A stretch of DNA of 64,000 nucleotides, taken from a virus (lineage: Duplodnaviria > Caudoviricetes). Within the stretch, counting starts at the first letter, position 1. Every line of letters starts with the position of its first letter. The stretch covers positions 1 through 64,000 of the IMG/VR virus record IMGVR_UViG_3300049988_000245. One strand, 5' to 3'. Of the stretch, positions 10,249-59,752 are shown piece by piece. The translations under genes and the position numbers were made by a program. The notes under the pieces were generated by a model. It searched no databases. It was given only the letters and a program-made list of their open reading frames with translations, and was not told the DNA's origin.

Positions 10249-10501
10249 GTGAAACAGTTTTCCTCAGCCCGGAATCGTCCCAGCCCCCTCAGGCTAATCG
10301 AGACCGCGCGAACCAATTCGTATCCAACCCAAAGCTTTTCTCAAGAGATAGGTGCCTCCGTAAGAGCTTATTAGGGGTACGGTTAATGAATTGTGAACGC
10401 AAATCGCCGGATGCATGCGACAAAAATTCTCCGTCTCTTTCACTGAGAACGCTAGTCTAGAGAATTTCTACCTCACAAAGCCGTGACCGGATCGACATAA
10501 A

Positions 10502-10535
10502 TGAAGCCACCGCCTTTGACAAGGCGGTGGCTTCA
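10502..10535. terminator. Perfect 15-bp hairpin terminator
   Basis: TGAAGCCACCGCCTT-TGAC-AAGGCGGTGGCTTCA. Confidence 0.7.
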
Positions 10536-10553
10536 CCGTTTTGGTCAAGCGAA

Positions 10554-11984
10554 TCAGTACTTCGCATACGCCTTTTTGAATCCCTCGACGCTGGTCTGCA
10601 AGGGCTCCATCAGAGTAGGCTCAACGTAGGAAGAGGCCGCCATCCGCTTGGTCACCGCATCGATATAGCAGGAGAACTTTCCTTCCGGGCTCGTGGTGAG
10701 CGCGATCGGTGCCCCGAGCAGGCTGGGGATCGACGGGTGCTGATCGAGTAGCGCCGTGTCCACGGACACACTCGCATCTTTGAACGAACTCACCGCCATC
10801 TTGAGGAAAAACGCCACGTCCTGGCCCTCGTCGTGCCGTGTAAACTCCTTCCCGAATCCGACATTCTTGTAGCCAAGCAGTAGGATGGGAATCTTCTTGG
10901 ACAAGGCGGCGTTGATAAATTCCGCCGTGACCCAGAGCGGCTGAGCCCCAACCACGTGCTGAGCCATCACCTTGACCCGCTGCCAGCCCGGATTGACCGT
11001 CGCGTTGATCTCTTCGACCAGGGCGAGACCCTTGGCGGACGAGCAAGAGACGCCAATCGCCTTGACGTATGTCTGCACGGCCTGGAGCTTGGCCGGGTCC
11101 GCGAGCCAGCGGTCCGACAGGGTCGTGAAGTTCGCCACCATCTCGTGCCCTGCGATTTCCTTGAGAATTTCGACGAAATCCGGATGGTCGGTCGGCTCTC
11201 CGCCGCCGATGGCGATCTCGAACACCTTCATCTTGGCGAGAAGATTGATGGTAGACCGAAGCGTCTTCATGCTGGCGTGCTTGCCCGCTTCGGTAGACGA
11301 CTGGTAGCAGAACTTGCACCCGGCGGCGCAGTAGTCGGTGATCTTGAGATCGACTAACTCAGGCACCGACGACTTCAGATAGGGTTCGTCCTTTACGGAC
11401 ATTCGCACCTTGTTACCTGTACGCTTGTCGAAGATCGTAATATGGTTTCCCTCCTCACGGACGGAGTTGTTGTAGCTCGACTTCAGCGTCTCGAACAACT
11501 CCTCTTCTTCGCAGCCATGCATGACGAAGGGATAGTTCGCCGAGTCGTCCCGGCCGCCGACCACGACGATGCGGTTGGACTGGAACAGGTTGATCAGCGT
11601 ATGGACATAGGCAGGGTGAAGTGGATCAGCCGGATGACTGATCTGTGAATTTCCAGAGACGTAGAAGTTGCCGTAGCCGTAGTTGTACTGCTCGTCGTCG
11701 TCCGTCTCCGTGGAGGCCACGAGTTCGGCAATGTTAGACAAATGCGGCGTGAAAATCTCGACAAGCTTCTTCTGATCGCAACCCCCGCCGAGGAGCAGGG
11801 CTGCAAGGTAACGCATCTTATCCTCGGTCGAAACCAAACGAAACTCCGTTTCACCAAAGGCGGTCTCGGTCTCGTTGATCGGCTCGAATTTGCCGACCAT
11901 GTCCTCGGGGATCAGCACGACCGAGTGGGACGAACTCGAATTGGTTGCGAATCCCGCACGAAGGTTATGAATGAAGATCGGCAT
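10554..11984 (-). CDS. Radical SAM protein with N-terminal GFATNSSSSHS domain
   Basis: CxxxCxxC (CAAGCKFC), GGGEP, NFTT; start MPIFIH with SD AAGGAG. Confidence 0.85.
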   Translation of the reverse strand: MPIFIHNLRAGFATNSSSSHSVVLIPEDMVGKFEPINETETAFGETEFRLVSTEDKMRYLAALLLGGGCDQKKLVEIFTPHLSNIAELVASTETDDDEQYNYGYGNFYVSGNSQISHPADPLHPAYVHTLINLFQSNRIVVVGGRDDSANYPFVMHGCEEEELFETLKSSYNNSVREEGNHITIFDKRTGNKVRMSVKDEPYLKSSVPELVDLKITDYCAAGCKFCYQSSTEAGKHASMKTLRSTINLLAKMKVFEIAIGGGEPTDHPDFVEILKEIAGHEMVANFTTLSDRWLADPAKLQAVQTYVKAIGVSCSSAKGLALVEEINATVNPGWQRVKVMAQHVVGAQPLWVTAEFINAALSKKIPILLLGYKNVGFGKEFTRHDEGQDVAFFLKMAVSSFKDASVSVDTALLDQHPSIPSLLGAPIALTTSPEGKFSCYIDAVTKRMAASSYVEPTLMEPLQTSVEGFKKAYAKY

Positions 11985-12011
11985 ATGCACTCCTTGAAAT
12001 CCGTTACCCAT

Positions 12012-48853: not shown

Positions 48854-49606
48854 ATGCTTACTGTTGCGTGCGTATTTAAGACATTTACCCAGGGAATCTA
48901 CGGCGGCGCCTATAACGATGCTTGGATTCAGAAACTCCAGAGGAGCGTTGCCAAGCACCTGTCGGTCCCGCACCGGTTTGTCTGCCTCAGCAACAGCTTT
49001 ATCCCGCATGTGGACGTAATTCCTCTCCAGAATGATTGGGAAGGTTGGTGGTCGAAGATCGAGATGTTCCGTCCCGGCCTATTCAAGGGTCCGGTTCTAT
49101 CGTTCGATCTTGATGTTACAGTGTTGAGTTCGATCGACCACATGGCCGGACCGTTTCCGAACATGATGATGCTCCGGGATATTATCCCGACGATCAACAA
49201 CTCTACCTGCATGTGGTGGGACGCCTCGGACCCCGCATACGGTAAGATTTACGAAACGTTCAAGGCCGACCCGGATGGGCTGAAGAAGAAGCACCACGTG
49301 TTCAACACGCAGTCGATGGGAGACCAGGGCTTCATCAACGAGATTGTCACCGGCCAGGGTAAGCAGATCGACATTTGGCAGGACAAATTCGGTGACGAGC
49401 AGTTCGTACCATTTTCGTTCTTCAGCCGTTTGAATCCGATCATGAACGATATTAAGCCGTCGCCCGATCCATTCTCGTTCCTTAATACCCTGAAGGAACC
49501 ACAGATGAATCCAGAACTTCAACGGGCCAAGCTAGTATACTGCCTTGGTAAACCAAAATTTGATTCTTATAATGATCTTGTTGTTGTTAAAAAGAATTGG
49601 GTGTAA
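48854..49606 (+). CDS. GT-A fold glycosyltransferase
   Basis: TVACV, FVCLS, GWWSKIEMFRP, DLD (DxD), NST.M.W, GDQGFI; GTAAATA at 48823. Confidence 0.8.
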   Translation: MLTVACVFKTFTQGIYGGAYNDAWIQKLQRSVAKHLSVPHRFVCLSNSFIPHVDVIPLQNDWEGWWSKIEMFRPGLFKGPVLSFDLDVTVLSSIDHMAGPFPNMMMLRDIIPTINNSTCMWWDASDPAYGKIYETFKADPDGLKKKHHVFNTQSMGDQGFINEIVTGQGKQIDIWQDKFGDEQFVPFSFFSRLNPIMNDIKPSPDPFSFLNTLKEPQMNPELQRAKLVYCLGKPKFDSYNDLVVVKKNWV

Positions 49607-49703: not shown

Positions 49704-52700
49704 ATGAGAATCACCGGAGGAATCAAGCCGTTCAGCCAGCAGAAGGTGCGGCTTGGGCAAACGTCGGGTGTTAAAATTGATTGGGACAACCCAACGGGAA
49801 CGCTTGGATCGGTCAACGCCGGAGATGCTTTCAACTTCAATTTTTCTGCCCGCTCATCCGACAACAACGTTGTCAGGTTCTACCTAAAGTCTGGCTCTCT
49901 GCCGGATGGTATGACGCTGTCTGAAAACGGGACGCTGTCGGGGACATCAAACTCTCCGGGCATGTATGCGTTCGTCATCAAGGCGGTTGCAGGTCTCTTC
50001 TCTGTCGAGCGAACCTTCTCAGTCCTCACGAAGGCTATCACGGTCGCTTGGACCTCTCCAGCCACGCTCGGTACGATTCCAGCTTCTATTTCCACCCTGA
50101 CGACCCTGTCCGCAACGGCATCGGATGGCGGCGCGGTCGATTACCAGTTGGTTTCAGGAAGCCCGCCCTCGGGAATGGAGTTTGTCACTTCTGGTGCGGT
50201 CCTTGGCAAGCCCAGCACGGGAGGCACGGCGGCTTTCACCGTTCGAGCCACTCGAAAGGCCAACATCTTCACCGACCGTACGTTCACGCTTGCGGTTGCG
50301 GCACCAATGATCACGTGGACCACGGGTTCGCTTCCGATGACCACCGGAGGAAACGTTTACGATCAAACCGTAGTCGCTACTTCCAACCAAACAAACGCGG
50401 TCCTATCGTACTCAGTCGTTTATGGATCGCTGCCCGCTGGACTTAGCCTTAACTCGGCAACAGGTCGAATCACGGGAGCAGCGTCGAACGTCGGTGGCTC
50501 CTCGGTATTCCGAATTCGTGCGAACGACGGGTATACGTATCTGGACAAAGAATTCACCATTACGGTGAATGAAGACATCATCTCTTGGAACACCCCGTCA
50601 GGCTCTTTTGCTTCGCTCAATGGCGGACAGACCTTCATGGGTACACTCGCGTCTGTTTCTAACATCACAGGCCGTTTGGTTAATCAGTATCGGGTCGTAT
50701 CCGGCGCACTCCCTGCGGGATTGACCCTCGACCCCGTTTCGGGATCGATCTCGGGAACTGCGCAGAACGTCAACGGCCTGTCATCGTTCATCGTTCGTGC
50801 ATCAGACGGGTTTGGATTCGCGGATCGCTCATTCCAGATCACAGTTCTGGCCGACGTCATTACGTGGCAGACTCCGACCCAGGTTACATTCAACGCTGGG
50901 GATGGCGACACGAGCATTCAGCTTAATGCGACTGCGCTTTCTGGAAGCCCAATCACGTATACGGTCGTCTCGGGCACGGTTCCAACTGGATTCTCGTTCA
51001 ATCCCACGACGGCGATTATCAGGGGATCGTCCAGCACGACAGTAACTTCGGCGATCACCATTCGGGCAAGTAATTCGATTACTTCGTCTGAGCGCACGTT
51101 TACGGTTTCCGTCAACGGGGCGCCGGTCTGGTCAACCGTCTCGGGCTCGATCGGTTCGGTTCTTCCGGGTCAGCAGATCAGCTTCTCGTTGATCGCATCC
51201 GATCCGGACGGCATTCAATCATACACGGTCATCCCAGAGGGGTCGCTTGCCGAAACCGTGTCGATTCGCAAGATGGGTAACACCGGCTACCTAACCGGCA
51301 CATTCCCAACTCCCTCGGATCAGTTCCCGCCCACATGGACGACGGATCGTGCCATTCCCACGGTCAACGAGGGCGTGATTCAGCCCATCTCGCTTGCTGC
51401 GGCGCCTAGCTCGGGACGTACGATCTCTCGTTACCTCACCGTGGGTGGCACGCTGCCCTGGGGTCTGGCGATGGCCGCAAATGGTGTCGTATCTGGCTCG
51501 GCTTTCAACCAGATTGACGAGCCCTTCACGCCACTTGCTCCCGCCCCGTTGTTTGCGACTGCGACCGACCTTGGCACGAAGTCCGAAGGCGATTCAGTTT
51601 CCCTAACGATGAATGCCACCTCGGTCGCCGGTAGTTCGATTTCGAACTACTCGTTCGTATCTGGAACCATGCCATGGGGAATCGTTCTGAACGGCTCTAC
51701 CGGTGTGCTATCGGGTACGATCGGCGACATCGAACCGGTCTCTGAAAATGTTGCAGCCGGTCCGGCACCCCGTTGGATGACATCCAATGCGGTCTCTCTG
51801 GCCGTCTTGAACGAGAACGATCCCGTCTCGGGCGTGAAGTTCGAGGCCCTGTCAAATTCCGCGTCGGGTATCCGTGGGTACGTGCTTCAGTCGGGTGCGC
51901 TCCCCTGGGGACTTACGTTGAGCGCAAACACCGGAGACGTCTCGGGTAACCTCGTGTTCGATCTCATGGACACGCCATTCGTATCTGCGCCCGGTCCGAC
52001 CTTCATCACGGCTTCCGACATGGGCACGGCCAGTGAAGGAACTCCGCTATCCGCAACGATCAAGGCGACACCCGTCACCGGTAATGCCGTGACCTCTTAC
52101 GCCCTAGTCGGCGGAATCCTCCCATGGGGTATCACGGTTAATTTGAACGGCGTGATCTCTGGAACGATCGATAACATCGAACCAATCTCGGACGCCCCTG
52201 CGAATCTTCTGCCTCCGACGTGGATGACCAACGCCTCGCTGCTCTACTCGGGTGACGAGAACTCCACGTTCACCATGAACGTCTCCGCGACCCCGTCGAG
52301 CAATCGTACGGTAGTGTCCTACAACATCGCCAATGGTGCGATTCCGTGGGGCGTAACGCTGAACAATCTTGGTACTCTCTCGGGCACGATCTCGAACATC
52401 GAACCGGTCCGTGATCCCGTTGTGATTCCGGAAGGCCCGATCTGGCAGACCTCGAATGCGACCGTGCTGTTCGCGGGCGACGAAATCATGTCGTTCAACG
52501 CTACCGTAGTCGCGAATTCCGCTACGAATACGGGCATCGCCGCATACACGATCACCAAGGGTGGAGCCCCGTGGGGCGTCTCTCTCAATTCGAAGACCGG
52601 CCAGTTCACCGGAAACGTTACGTTGATCGAGCAGGACGACCCGTTCGTGGTCACGAACACTCCGGTATTCGTAACCCCGGCGGGTAGCCTGGGTACGGTC

Positions 52701-53831
52701 GATGAAGGCACTGTCATGACGACGCCAATCATTGTTACGCCTGGACCACGCTCGGCCCCCGTGAGTGGTTATTCGGTTGTTGCTGGCGCGATCCCTTGGG
52801 GCCTCACTCTGAGCCAGACCGGTGTCCTTTCGGGAACGATCGATAACATCGAGCCGATCGTCGAAATGACCGCGAATCTTAATCCCCCGGTATGGCAGAC
52901 GAACGCCGCAACCCTCTACTCGGGCGATGAGCTTAGCTCATTCTCGACTACTGTGATGGCGAACGCCGCGACCAACAAGACCGTCGTTTCGTACACCGTC
53001 ATGAATGGGACGATTCCGTGGGGAACGACCCTGAACAGTGCGGGCGTCCTCACCGGAACCATCTGGGGAATCGAGCCAGTATCCGATCCAGTGGCGATTC
53101 CGGCTGCTCCAGTCTGGATCACCGCAAACACCTCGGTGCTCTTCTCGGGTGACGAGATCATGCCGTTCACCGCCACCGTGGTTGCGAACTCCGCCACGAA
53201 TACGGGGATCGCCGCCTACATGATTGCGAACGGCACCGTCCCCTGGGGCGTAACGCTGAACTCGAAGACCGGTCAGTTCACCGGCAACGTGACGCTGATC
53301 GAGCGCGATGACCCGTTCATCGTGACCACCCCGCCGGTATTCACCACCCCCGGCGATCTGGGGACGGTCAACGAAGGCGCTCTGATCTCTCAGAGCATCG
53401 TGGCGCTCCCAGGGGCGGCTTCCATCCCTGTGGCTACCTACGCGGTCTCTGGTGGAGCTATGCCGTGGGGAATCACCCTGAGCCCATCTGGTACGCTATC
53501 TGGAACGATCGATAACATCGAGCCAGTCAGCGAAGGAATCGTTCTTGGGACACCCCCATCGTTTACGACTCCGGCGGGCTCGCTCGGAACGTTCTCGAAC
53601 TCAGCAACCGTCAGCACCTCTGTGAGTGCGACTCTAGCAGGTTCATCCATCTCTTATGGAGTTCAATCGGGCACGCTTCCTTGGGGTGTTGTCCTAAATC
53701 AAACGAACGGTTCTATTTCTGGATCATTGAATCCTACTGATGATTCAAATCGTACATTTGCTTTCTCAATTAGAGCTTTTTCGTCAAATGCAGGTTATAT
53801 TGACCGTGCATTCTCTATTACTGTTCAGTAA
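49704..53831 (+). CDS. Giant Ig-like (He_PIG-type) repeat fibre protein, 17 repeats
   Basis: TATAAATA at 49672; SD GAGG; repeats P.W.T...LG...G.LP.G.TL...G.ISG. Confidence 0.85.
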   Translation: MRITGGIKPFSQQKVRLGQTSGVKIDWDNPTGTLGSVNAGDAFNFNFSARSSDNNVVRFYLKSGSLPDGMTLSENGTLSGTSNSPGMYAFVIKAVAGLFSVERTFSVLTKAITVAWTSPATLGTIPASISTLTTLSATASDGGAVDYQLVSGSPPSGMEFVTSGAVLGKPSTGGTAAFTVRATRKANIFTDRTFTLAVAAPMITWTTGSLPMTTGGNVYDQTVVATSNQTNAVLSYSVVYGSLPAGLSLNSATGRITGAASNVGGSSVFRIRANDGYTYLDKEFTITVNEDIISWNTPSGSFASLNGGQTFMGTLASVSNITGRLVNQYRVVSGALPAGLTLDPVSGSISGTAQNVNGLSSFIVRASDGFGFADRSFQITVLADVITWQTPTQVTFNAGDGDTSIQLNATALSGSPITYTVVSGTVPTGFSFNPTTAIIRGSSSTTVTSAITIRASNSITSSERTFTVSVNGAPVWSTVSGSIGSVLPGQQISFSLIASDPDGIQSYTVIPEGSLAETVSIRKMGNTGYLTGTFPTPSDQFPPTWTTDRAIPTVNEGVIQPISLAAAPSSGRTISRYLTVGGTLPWGLAMAANGVVSGSAFNQIDEPFTPLAPAPLFATATDLGTKSEGDSVSLTMNATSVAGSSISNYSFVSGTMPWGIVLNGSTGVLSGTIGDIEPVSENVAAGPAPRWMTSNAVSLAVLNENDPVSGVKFEALSNSASGIRGYVLQSGALPWGLTLSANTGDVSGNLVFDLMDTPFVSAPGPTFITASDMGTASEGTPLSATIKATPVTGNAVTSYALVGGILPWGITVNLNGVISGTIDNIEPISDAPANLLPPTWMTNASLLYSGDENSTFTMNVSATPSSNRTVVSYNIANGAIPWGVTLNNLGTLSGTISNIEPVRDPVVIPEGPIWQTSNATVLFAGDEIMSFNATVVANSATNTGIAAYTITKGGAPWGVSLNSKTGQFTGNVTLIEQDDPFVVTNTPVFVTPAGSLGTVDEGTVMTTPIIVTPGPRSAPVSGYSVVAGAIPWGLTLSQTGVLSGTIDNIEPIVEMTANLNPPVWQTNAATLYSGDELSSFSTTVMANAATNKTVVSYTVMNGTIPWGTTLNSAGVLTGTIWGIEPVSDPVAIPAAPVWITANTSVLFSGDEIMPFTATVVANSATNTGIAAYMIANGTVPWGVTLNSKTGQFTGNVTLIERDDPFIVTTPPVFTTPGDLGTVNEGALISQSIVALPGAASIPVATYAVSGGAMPWGITLSPSGTLSGTIDNIEPVSEGIVLGTPPSFTTPAGSLGTFSNSATVSTSVSATLAGSSISYGVQSGTLPWGVVLNQTNGSISGSLNPTDDSNRTFAFSIRAFSSNAGYIDRAFSITVQ
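51117..53543 (+). repeat. Eleven tandem strand-incomplete Ig repeats
   Basis: Repeats 6-16 (about 70-76 aa) lack the F.IRA...DR.F.I.V hairpin present in repeats 1-5 and 17 (about 90 aa). Confidence 0.75.
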
Positions 53832-53848
53832 ATTTAAAGGATCAATTT

Positions 53849-54910
53849 ATGGCGACTTATAACTTTACGATTCGCGCTACCGATAACGTTGGCGCCTATG
53901 CGGATCGCAACTTCTCGATCAATGTCAACAACACGATTTATGACCGATTCGTTGCTGTCGGCAACGCCGGTCTCGCCCGTTCACCCGATGGTGTGAATTG
54001 GCTTTGGGAAGCTGGTCTGTCGGGAGAGGGCGTTGCTTTTGGTGGCGGCAAATGGCTGGTTTGGAACGGCACAACGTTTCGCTCTTCACCCGATGGAACC
54101 TCTTGGACCAACTATACCCCGACGTTTACCGGCGCGAGCGTTGGTGGTGTCTCCCGTATCAAATACCGTATCGCGAATAGCACGTGGGTCGCGCACACTT
54201 ACTATTTCAATGGGTCGAGCTATTCATATGATGAATTTAGTTCCACCGATGCCGTAACATGGGCGAGATCAACAAATATCTTTACCGGCGGTGGCAACAC
54301 TCTGTCGTATGCAACCTGTGACTTCGATCATGACGCCGCAGGTAATTGCGTTGCTTATCTCAATGGTGGAGCAACTTTCTACAAGCCAGCCGCTTCATCT
54401 ACATGGACAAGCCAGTCAATTAGCGGCCTCGGTCAAATTTCTGCCAGCACTTTTTGGGGAAATGTTCGAAACTATAACGGCTTGTGGATCATTTCGGCTG
54501 GCTCATCAAACGTTGCCACGTCAGTTGATGGTACCAATTGGGTCGGGCGCGCCACCGGTGCCGCTCAGTATGGTCTGCTGTATCTGAACGGTCGAATCCT
54601 TTCTCTTCCTACGAATACTGGAGCCAACACGTCCGCGACAATCCGAGAAAGCCTTACTGCGGGTCGTTCATGGGCAGGCCGCACTGGAGCAACTGCATCC
54701 AATAATCTTCCGTACGGACTGCTTACCGGCACGGGTGGAAATACGTATAAGCAGCCTATGTGCTATTTCGGCGGCACGCTACTGGCTCACTCAAACGGCA
54801 ACACTGCACTTTCTAGAAGCGTGGATGATGGTCTTACGTTTACGAGCTTTGCACCGGCCGGTTCATCAGGGGTATTCAACGCAATTGCTGCTCGTGACGG
54901 TATTAGCTAA
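53849..54910 (+). CDS. Beta-propeller-like receptor-binding protein with N-terminal Ig-completing hairpin
   Basis: Starts MATYNFTIRATDNVGAYADRNFSINVNN; repeated S.DG..W (BNR/Asp-box-like) motifs. Confidence 0.75.
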   Translation: MATYNFTIRATDNVGAYADRNFSINVNNTIYDRFVAVGNAGLARSPDGVNWLWEAGLSGEGVAFGGGKWLVWNGTTFRSSPDGTSWTNYTPTFTGASVGGVSRIKYRIANSTWVAHTYYFNGSSYSYDEFSSTDAVTWARSTNIFTGGGNTLSYATCDFDHDAAGNCVAYLNGGATFYKPAASSTWTSQSISGLGQISASTFWGNVRNYNGLWIISAGSSNVATSVDGTNWVGRATGAAQYGLLYLNGRILSLPTNTGANTSATIRESLTAGRSWAGRTGATASNNLPYGLLTGTGGNTYKQPMCYFGGTLLAHSNGNTALSRSVDDGLTFTSFAPAGSSGVFNAIAARDGIS

Positions 54911-54928
54911 GATTTTGAGGTAAAATAA

Positions 54929-56092
54929 ATGGCAACCTATAACTTTACAGTCCGTGCGATTGATAATTCTGGTGCATTTTCAGATCGCAACTTTGCGATG
55001 ACTGTGAATAACACTCAGGTAGATCGTTTTATCATTTCCACTTATAATGGATTCCTTCGTTCTACCGATGGGACTACTTGGAATCTCGACCAGAATATTT
55101 ATAGCGAACAGGTTCGTTGGGAAAATAACCAATGGATTGGATACTCGTCAAATGCGTACGCCTATACTGGAACTATTCGCACATCTGTCGATGGCTTGAA
55201 TTGGAAAAGCATCACACCCACAGTTCCCTTCAGAGCGGCAATCACTTCGACTGAAGGATTTAGCAACCTTTTGTTTCAGGGTTGGAATTCTATCAAATAC
55301 CGCAAGGGTGCTTGGAGAGGTTTTGCGATCGTCTATGCAACACTCAATTCTACTGGTGTGGTTTGGTACTTGTACGAAGAGTACTCATCTCCTGATCTTG
55401 TTAATTGGACTCCGGTGGGACAAGTAACTGCCAGAGTTGGTACGTCGGTAAATCTTGGCAACGGCGTTGTGGACTTTGATTATGATCCTGCTACGGATAC
55501 GACTGTGGCGTTGTTTTCTAATTATCAACAAGGCGGATGTTTTGGTTATCGTAGAGTTGGCACAGGAGCTTGGGGAAATATTTATATCACAGGTACCAGC
55601 CTGGGAGGTACTGTTCCCCTAGAGTCTTCACGAACCGGTTTTACTTCTTCGACCAGAACAGGAAAAGTGTTCTTCCAAAACGGCGTATGGATTATTTCGA
55701 TCGGTGCGATTCTTGTTTGGACCAGCACGGATGGGAATAATTTTATTACGCGAGACCTGTCTATTTCTTCGGCTGGTATCGGTAATGTGATATACTCGAA
55801 CGGTCGGCTACTTGCATATCCGATGAACTCAACGGGCCTAACCAACCCGCTTCTGCAAAGCACGAATGCGGGCCATACTTGGACAACCCGACCGATCACT
55901 TCGACGCAGAAACTTTTGTCTACTTTTACTTCAAATCAAATGAATCGCCAGAATATTGCTTCCTATGGTGGCACGATTATCGCGATCTCGCCAGCAGAGG
56001 CAAACATCGTCGTTTCGAAGGACGACGGTTTAAACTGGTCTCTGATTAATGTGGGTGGCACTCCAATTAGCATCGCCTCCCGCGAGAGCTAA
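54929..56092 (+). CDS. Second beta-propeller-like receptor-binding protein with N-terminal Ig-completing hairpin
   Basis: Starts MATYNFTVRAIDNSGAFSDRNFAMTVNN; STDG..W, SVDG.NW, SKDDG.NW; AT-rich DNA. Confidence 0.75.
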   Translation: MATYNFTVRAIDNSGAFSDRNFAMTVNNTQVDRFIISTYNGFLRSTDGTTWNLDQNIYSEQVRWENNQWIGYSSNAYAYTGTIRTSVDGLNWKSITPTVPFRAAITSTEGFSNLLFQGWNSIKYRKGAWRGFAIVYATLNSTGVVWYLYEEYSSPDLVNWTPVGQVTARVGTSVNLGNGVVDFDYDPATDTTVALFSNYQQGGCFGYRRVGTGAWGNIYITGTSLGGTVPLESSRTGFTSSTRTGKVFFQNGVWIISIGAILVWTSTDGNNFITRDLSISSAGIGNVIYSNGRLLAYPMNSTGLTNPLLQSTNAGHTWTTRPITSTQKLLSTFTSNQMNRQNIASYGGTIIAISPAEANIVVSKDDGLNWSLINVGGTPISIASRES

Positions 56093-56099
56093 TCCATAC

Positions 56100-56127
56100 A
56101 ACTCCGGGTCCTACGGGACCCGGAGTT
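56100..56127. terminator. Bidirectional hairpin with UACG loop
   Basis: AACTCCGGGTCC-TACG-GGACCCGGAGTT. Confidence 0.75.
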
Positions 56128-59597: not shown

Positions 59598-59672
59598 TGG
59601 CGTCCCCTCAGGGATTCGAACCCTGGATCGCGGAGTTAGAAGCCGCTGCCTTAACCGCTTGGCTAAGGGGAC
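59598..59672 (-). tRNA. tRNA with CUA anticodon on a tRNA-Glu-like body
   Basis: GTCCCCT/AGGGGAC acceptor, G73, CCA, 4-nt variable loop; anticodon arm GCGGC-TTCTAAC-TCCGC. Confidence 0.8.
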
Positions 59673-59678
59673 ATACGG

Positions 59679-59752
59679 TGTCTCTGGTCGGGCTCGAACC
59701 GACGACCAATGGAGTTAGAAGCCACCGCTCTGACCAACTGAGCTACAGAGAC
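59679..59752 (-). tRNA. Second tRNA with CUA anticodon, A73, CCA not fully encoded
   Basis: GTCTCTG/CAGAGAC acceptor; GCTC/GAGC D-arm; GTGGC-TTCTAAC-TCCAT; GGTTCGAGCCC T-arm. Confidence 0.8.

Follow-up and report, generated by a model that had tools for sequence, protein, structure and literature searches.

Genes and repeats at the locus

The window analysed here is the first 64 kb (64,000 nucleotides) of IMGVR_UViG_3300049988_000245, a 265.9-kb record in IMG/VR assigned to the Caudoviricetes. The completeness estimated by CheckV at this length is only 57%, and the record is therefore taken to derive from a jumbo phage. Between positions 49704 and 56092 lie three consecutive genes, P0001, P0002 and P0003, encoding a long repeat protein (the fibre) and two smaller proteins (the heads). 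All three are on one strand, each with an individual Shine-Dalgarno sequence and a TAA stop codon, and they are best explained as a virion-appendage operon of a jumbo phage resembling Agrobacterium phage Atu_ph07. An original prediction, made from the DNA sequence, had described a fibre whose incomplete immunoglobulin (Ig)-like repeats serve as sockets for heads that complete them in trans. The features are listed below, with repeat limits given as positions of a 90-position hidden Markov model (HMM) of the repeat:

49704-53831 (codons to 53828), plus strand: fibre gene P0001, an open reading frame (ORF) of 1375 amino acids (aa), with GAGG 7 nt before the ATG and a TAA stop
49704-49763, plus strand: conserved N-terminal motif of about 20 aa (M-R/S-I-x-x-G-x-x-x-P and a basic strand), common to P0001 homologues and to the small X proteins described below
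49773-51119, plus strand: complete repeats 1-5 (aa 24-472) with their own F-G strands, HMM positions 1-89
51120-53561, plus strand: eleven short repeats 6-16 (aa 473-1286), candidate sockets, 7-16 with PWG; HMM matches end at positions 59-62 of 90
53562-53828, plus strand: complete terminal repeat 17 (aa 1287-1375) with PWG loop W1327, predicted dock for the propeller; HMM positions 4-88, predicted local distance difference test (pLDDT) 81-92
53849-54910, plus strand: head 1 gene P0002 (353 aa), F-G hairpin and BNR/Asp-box beta-propeller, from AlphaFold2 (AF2), Foldseek and profile matches
53852-53932, plus strand: orphan F-G hairpin of head 1 (aa 2-28), the putative plug; HMM positions 65-89, strands 2-11 and 17-26, predicted interface 4-13 and 17-27
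54929-56092, plus strand: head 2 gene P0003 (387 aa), a head 1 paralogue with 39% identity to P0002 and 40 homologues
54932-55012, plus strand: orphan F-G hairpin of head 2 (aa 2-28); HMM positions 65-89, DNA 70% identical to that of head 1

The only match of P0001 in Pfam and PHROG was to He_PIG (PF05345; E = 2.9e-79, 262 bits against a cut-off of 24, 14 stretches), with no T4 gp10-like or XD branching domain detected in these searches. The closest solved structure for its repeats is that of SraP (4m03). With the HMM, which was trained on the six complete repeats of P0001, 17 He_PIG Ig-like repeats were found, in agreement with the count and classes originally given. Repeats 1-5 and 17 are complete and span about positions 1-89 (4-88 in repeat 17), whereas repeats 6-16, matched over aa 476-1272 with a period of 72-77 residues, span positions 3-60 and end at 59-62, after a G-x-[IL]-[ST]-G strand. 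These eleven repeats are without the F and G strands, and the seven-strand He_PIG domain is thus incomplete there. The tripeptide PWG was limited to repeats 7-17, as had also been noted, with P-D/S/A/A/T-G at the same place in repeats 1-5, where the position of the Trp is held by small or polar residues. Seven unrelated He_PIG proteins recovered in the same search (P0048, P0050-P0056) were found to contain essentially complete repeats only.

The part of the domain lacking in the short repeats was found at the start of both head genes, where residues 3-28 of P0002 and P0003 correspond to positions 65-89 of the repeat HMM. A single domain model is in this way partitioned between the short repeats (positions 3-60) and the propeller N-termini (positions 65-89). 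When the 266-kb record was searched, as 5175 six-frame ORFs, with an HMM of the F-G elements present in cis, the matches were limited to P0001, another He_PIG ORF, P0002 (E = 2.4e-5) and P0003 (E = 2.2e-4), and the next match was at E = 1.2. In the reverse test, an HMM built from the propeller N-termini matched the F-G elements of P0001 with E = 4.5e-7. The correspondence between short repeat and hairpin is not due to chance, and the observation that both genes begin with just the missing element is confirmed, with significance in both directions. Further ORFs with such a start, which it had been proposed to look for, were not found: a hairpin HMM search of the ORFs of the 266-kb record detected none besides P0002 and P0003.

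The AF2 model of P0002, built with 56 homologues, has a pLDDT of 88.5 and a predicted template modelling score (pTM) of 0.86. It consists of a long hairpin (strands 2-11 and 17-26), a short linker and an Asp-box beta-propeller, and seven sites resembling S-x-D-x-G-x-x-W can be read in the protein. Foldseek and profile matches were obtained to Ycf48, sortilin Vps10, GH74 xyloglucanase, sialidases and DUF6242 proteins, with an E value of 1.6e-10 for the propeller profile against the GH74 xyloglucanase 2cn3. Neither P0002 nor P0003 gave anything above threshold in Pfam and PHROG; one family member, P0022, scores above the Pfam BNR_2 threshold. The propellers had been described as different domains, a point that does not hold, as at 39% sequence identity P0002 and P0003 are seen to be diverged paralogues of a single family. 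The two paralogous heads would serve as alternative or additional binding modules, probably with glycans as ligands.

Predicted insertion of the head hairpin into the fibre

An AF2 monomer model of P0001 residues 1060-1375 (nine aligned sequences) has a mean pLDDT of 75, with values of 70-84 in the short repeats and below 50 in the linkers. The C strand is left unpaired in the short repeats and forms a regular strand beside F in repeat 17. The same fragment was also modelled with P0002, with an own alignment for each protein, in three runs accompanied by three controls. The runs gave an interaction prediction score from aligned errors (ipSAE) of 0.64, 0.70 and 0.68 (reported as 0.68), whereas each control scored 0.00. 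When the score was calibrated, 58 of 80 solved complexes reached this mark, as did 2 of 110 mismatched pairs, figures that are only a rough guide where own alignments are used. At least 79% of the contacts were common to the three runs, with a partner pLDDT of at least 80.

In the complex model, hairpin residues 4-13 and 17-27 occupy the F-G position, contacting P0001 residues 1210-1263, which correspond to strands A, B and C of repeat 16. These contacts match those of F and G in an intact domain. The propeller in turn contacts residues 1317-1365 of repeat 17 through loops 209-212, 245-249, 269-273 and 308-309; this contact is centred on W1327 of PWG in the C-C' loop and has the lowest expected errors. 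Taken as a prediction, the model supports binding between P0001 and P0002. It should be noted that the invariant N247-G248 was not counted as conservation of the interface, since this 'NG' turn is repeated in several of the blades and is probably structural.

A mechanism in two steps can be proposed. P0001 would be a beads-on-a-string fibre of He_PIG Ig-like domains, and the loss of F and G in eleven of them would leave the G-F-C-C' sheet open. In the plug step the hairpin would enter a short repeat, with F pairing with strand C and G with strand A, and the sandwich would be completed in trans. A joint of this type would be a two-strand donor complementation, that is, the fragment complementation of a split Ig domain. 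In the dock step the propeller would lie along the next repeat and touch the exposed Trp of its PWG. Plugging into repeat n and docking on repeat n+1 would, if the model is correct, account for the offset of one repeat between the short repeats (6-16) and those with PWG (7-17).

Conservation, gene linkage and cultured relatives

An exhaustive search for the head family (E < 0.001, clustered at 50% identity) gave about 280 representatives, every one of them labelled 'hypothetical'. A hairpin start at residue 1-4 was found in about 110 of the 133 representatives listed (92 by a strict pattern and about 18 by eye), and the rest of these 133 were mostly long cellular propeller proteins matching in the blades only. 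Among 56 aligned members the mean pairwise identity was 65% in the hairpin against 25% in the propeller, with F6, R9, A10, G15 and F22 of the hairpin invariant. Attachment modules of phage receptor-binding proteins are characteristically recognised by a conserved N-terminus followed by a distal domain that varies. Judged by these identities, the hairpin is under strong purifying selection. Within the operon the DNA of the two hairpins is only 70% identical and 12 of 30 codons carry synonymous changes, so the similarity of the hairpins is held by selection at the protein level; recent gene conversion is ruled out by the same figures.

For hairpin-propeller genes (termed Z), the surrounding genes were read on contigs from metagenomes and from IMG/VR and in two cultured phages. 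On 14 jumbo-phage contigs, 17 modules were found in which Z adjoins a He_PIG gene with short internal repeats and a complete last repeat; on contig L019 the module is cut by the contig end, hence an exception to the linkage. Two layouts were distinguished. In the first, long fibres such as P0001 consist of five complete, seven to 11 short and one complete repeat and are accompanied by two Z genes. In the second, the genes are arranged as X-Y-Z, where X is a small protein with the P0001-like N-terminal motif, one complete repeat and strands A-B only at its C-terminus, and Y opens with strands C-C'-E of a repeat and continues with three short repeats and a last, complete one. Across the related phages there are four to 11 short repeats per one or two propeller genes.

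In the X-Y-Z relatives a He_PIG domain is split in its B-C loop between the adjacent X and Y genes (A-B in X, C-C'-E in Y), and this is read from the genes as a second conserved split-Ig joint. The loci concerned are:

Contig L004, 7918-9989: X/Y split
Atu_ph07 (L016), 10479-11998: X/Y split
Phosso (L017), 10388-11991: X/Y split
Contig L020, 4368-5988: X/Y split
Contig L021, 1136-2756 and 4124-5988: X/Y splits

The stop of X and the start of Y overlap by 1, 4 or 8 nt, and because the overlaps, and hence the frames, differ among the phages, a shared frameshift is unlikely. A programmed frameshift at this junction was considered and judged unlikely from these varying frames and from the mainly small-protein migration of the X homologue of Atu_ph07, gp239, which was found in band 11 (PMC6102473).

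On a metagenomic fragment (L023, protein P0192) an open frame runs from a complete He_PIG repeat directly into a propeller, with an F-G element and junction like those of P0002. This fusion shows that the orphan hairpin descends from the end of a He_PIG domain, the first five strands of which must now be supplied from elsewhere. One other protein with short repeats was found, P0049, and a propeller-like gene again lies downstream. P0049 (1037 aa, metagenomic) has three short PWG repeats in mid-protein, then complete PWG repeats and a glycine-rich C-terminus (Pfam Gly_rich_2), and the propeller encoded downstream is DUF6242_C-like. A further variant was seen in the 1211-aa fibre at L005:5241-8876, where a low-complexity insert of ~150 residues rich in Gly and Tyr (aa ~295-445) replaces one complete repeat.

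The nearest cultured relatives for the operon genes are Agrobacterium phage Atu_ph07 (490 kb) and Sinorhizobium phage Phosso (469 kb), with homologous modules at gp239-gp241 and gp681-679, respectively. In Atu_ph07, gp239, gp240 and gp241 are the homologues of X, Y and Z. All three were detected by tandem mass spectrometry (MS/MS) in purified virions of this phage (Table S5 of that study): gp239 (15.8 kDa) with 3 peptides and 40.6% coverage, gp240 (36.3 kDa) with 2 peptides and gp241 (43.7 kDa) with 6 peptides (PMC6102473). The presence of the components in the virion holds by published mass spectrometry for the Atu_ph07 homologues, the present phage being represented by its genes alone. The true start of gp240 was found to overlap the stop of gp239 (ATGA), and the annotated start is apparently 75 nt too far downstream; the corrected start restores strands C and C' to gp240.

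With regard to position on the virion, the modules on contigs L004, L020, L021, L025 and L028 lie beside a He_PIG gene of 666-717 aa, and on L004 a baseplate gene resembling T4 gp9/gp10 is also close to the module. In the present genome, positions 210658-212688 encode another He_PIG protein of 676 aa, a homologue of L004_717 (by blast against L004 only). It is followed by a tail-fibre-like gene (727-aa protein; region 210658-214888), and the sole T4_gp9_10_N match in the genome is a weak one at 209582-209752 on the minus strand. The He_PIG protein at 210658-212688 is a candidate for the baseplate-side attachment partner. The N-terminal motif at 49704-49763 may anchor the fibre to the virion, possibly as a further plug.

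The surroundings of the operon in the window include a glycosyltransferase-like gene immediately upstream and primase and helicase genes farther upstream. The features outside the three genes are:

48854-49606, plus strand: glycosyltransferase-like gene of 250 aa (PHROG 1962), directly 5' of the fibre gene
56102-56125, plus strand: GC-rich inverted repeat directly after the last stop, read from the sequence
59598-59752, minus strand: two tandem tRNA genes with anticodon CUA (amber suppressors), labelled Pyl by ARAGORN

The inverted repeat is likely to mark the end of the operon, although it was not called in a terminator scan, its T run being short. A homologue of the glycosyltransferase-like gene with 58% identity is located directly 3' of both head genes on contig L005 (11168-11926); the gene thus travels with the module, and its product may glycosylate the fibre. 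A tRNA(CUA) is encoded by Phosso as well. As all three stops of the operon are TAA, the tRNA pair is irrelevant to it. Joining of the genes by read-through or frameshift was ruled out, each gene having its own Shine-Dalgarno sequence and repeat 17 its own F-G strands. A DNA-level search of the phage collection gave no match.

Interpretation and comparison with known systems

It is considered reasonably probable that the heads are attached to the fibre through a two-strand hairpin, which would complement an incomplete He_PIG domain in trans. The socket fibre of the original prediction is in part supported, by the homology, the conservation, the linkage to short-repeat genes and the modelled complex with repeat 16. 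Sequence complementarity, conservation, gene linkage and the virion presence of homologues were observed directly; physical insertion, stoichiometry and ligand are presumed.

Several points weigh against this reading. The insertion itself comes from a structure predictor, and it may reflect the predictor's memory of the intact fold, by which any split domain would be reassembled; such memory cannot account for the predicted contact between the propeller and repeat 17. The complex model covered only the last three short repeats, and the last of these (repeat 16) was used. The short repeats still reach a pLDDT of 70-84 when modelled alone. They also exceed the head genes by 3 to 5.5:1, so that most sockets may stay unfilled and need some other stabilisation. 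The Trp of PWG is not kept in the last repeat of more distant homologues, where another large hydrophobic residue (V, F, L or I) stands in its place, and on contig L029 a hairpin-propeller gene occurs without a He_PIG gene within reach. Finally, the operon here lies outside any recognisable tail module, among the primase, helicase and glycosyltransferase-like genes.

Part of this evidence could be explained if the hairpin were a real anchor for a different site, with the short repeats acting as self-sufficient spacers and the hairpin attached by edge-strand augmentation to another virion protein or to the X/Y split repeat. The surplus of short repeats over head genes and their partner-free pLDDT values would both fit such spacers, and the X-Y-Z relatives possess a repeat divided over two polypeptides that might need the hairpin as a staple. 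However, the hairpin is placed within a regular short repeat in the complex model, for which the controls scored 0.00, P0001 keeps two head genes although it lacks a split junction, and short repeats were found solely in fibres that travel with hairpin-propeller genes. Attachment elsewhere is accordingly regarded as unlikely, though it is the best of the alternatives.

Another explanation is that the proteins do not form a receptor-binding fibre, but Hoc-like 'hairs' of the capsid or tail that adhere loosely to the environment or slime, or propellers acting as enzymes on polysaccharides. The Atu_ph07 particle carries tail fibres and hairy whiskers, the latter mainly associated with the capsid (PMC6102473), and the propeller profile does match GH74 xyloglucanase and sialidases. 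A baseplate location is suggested instead by the five contigs on which a relative of the 210658-212688 He_PIG ORF adjoins the module (a relation established by blast for L004 only), by the gp9/gp10-like gene near the L004 module and by the tail-fibre-like gene that the 210658-212688 ORF precedes here. This alternative is thought improbable; it concerns location and ligand only, and a plug-and-socket joint is compatible with it. That the hairpin is a gene-fission remnant of a He_PIG-propeller fusion, serving as a recombination boundary for head swapping with no binding role of its own, is very improbable, for although a covalent fusion does exist (P0192) and recombination in phage fibre genes classically occurs at conserved N-terminal coding segments, the conservation is in the protein and not in the DNA, and the invariant residues persist in a family that is only 25% identical elsewhere.

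Complementation in trans may tentatively be extended to a general split-Ig joining code in the appendages of Atu_ph07-like jumbo phages, a possibility held with little confidence. All short repeats would then be sockets, and the X/Y split and the N-terminal hairpin-like motif would be further joints. The fibre would resemble a bottle brush with up to 11 propeller heads of two kinds, each inserted into repeat n and resting against the PWG loop, and the adjacent plug, of repeat n+1, and the N-terminal hairpin-like motif would fix the fibre to the baseplate-side He_PIG protein.

Were the joint real, the completion of a broken Ig fold would be a way in which phages fix receptor-binding heads to a fibre, a principle that was found described only for bacterial and archaeal pili. 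The mounting on the virion would be explained for a large unannotated protein family of giant phages, and a function would be given to gp239-241 of the cultured phages Atu_ph07 and Phosso (gp681-679 in the latter). The 28-residue tag and 60-residue acceptor would also be a natural, genetically encoded plug-and-socket pair that could serve modular display or host-range studies in laboratory phage-host pairs. The statement that no phage precedent is known agrees with the literature searched for strand complementation in phage fibres, which contained only pilus and unrelated papers, although its coverage is incomplete and the evidence of absence weak.

The closest known principle is that of the chaperone-usher pili (type 1 and P), the type V pili and the archaeal Tafi, in which an Ig-like subunit is completed by the N-terminal extension of its partner in a very stable non-covalent joint. 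P0001 likewise has acceptor Ig folds without C-terminal strands (eleven repeats, with the C strand unpaired in AF2), and the N-terminal extension of P0002 and P0003 matches the missing part, as judged from sequence and model. Unlike in these pili, two strands (the F-G hairpin) would be donated in place of one, the acceptor is a repeat inside a long polypeptide instead of a polymerising subunit, a globular head takes the place of the next pilin as donor, and the domain family is He_PIG and not pilin. Assembly of the phage joint would be cytoplasmic, in contrast to the chaperone-usher pili, and no chaperone or usher genes turned up among the neighbours scanned, in which no search aimed at those families was made. 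The joint works like donor-strand complementation without membership in the chaperone-usher family.

Branched receptor-binding complexes are known from phages G7C (gp63.1/gp66) and CBA120 (TSP1-4) and from KP32-type Klebsiella phages, where the second depolymerase has a short conserved N-terminal peptide. The present heads resemble these in their short conserved N-terminus and variable C-terminal domain (65% against 25% identity), in their gene position beside the primary fibre and in that several heads may share one scaffold. In the known complexes the docking sites are T4 gp10-like or XD branching domains carried by trimeric proteins, whereas the site predicted here is an Ig domain that lacks a piece, and this piece forms the anchor.

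With regard to the component domains, repeats 1-5 and 17 of P0001 are ordinary members of the He_PIG (dystroglycan-type cadherin-like) repeats of bacterial fibrillar adhesins, unlike repeats 6-16, which are without the last third of the domain. The heads share the fold, an Asp-box in every blade and profile matches with the BNR/Asp-box propellers (Ycf48, sortilin Vps10, GH74, sialidases, DUF6242), but fall below the Pfam thresholds and carry an N-terminal Ig hairpin; glycosidase catalytic residues were not identified in them, although no comparison aimed at an active site was made. In the homologous module of Atu_ph07 and Phosso, the fibre is split into a small X and a Y with four short repeats and a single head is encoded, whereas the fibre of the present phage corresponds to a fused X and Y enlarged to 17 repeats and is accompanied by two heads.

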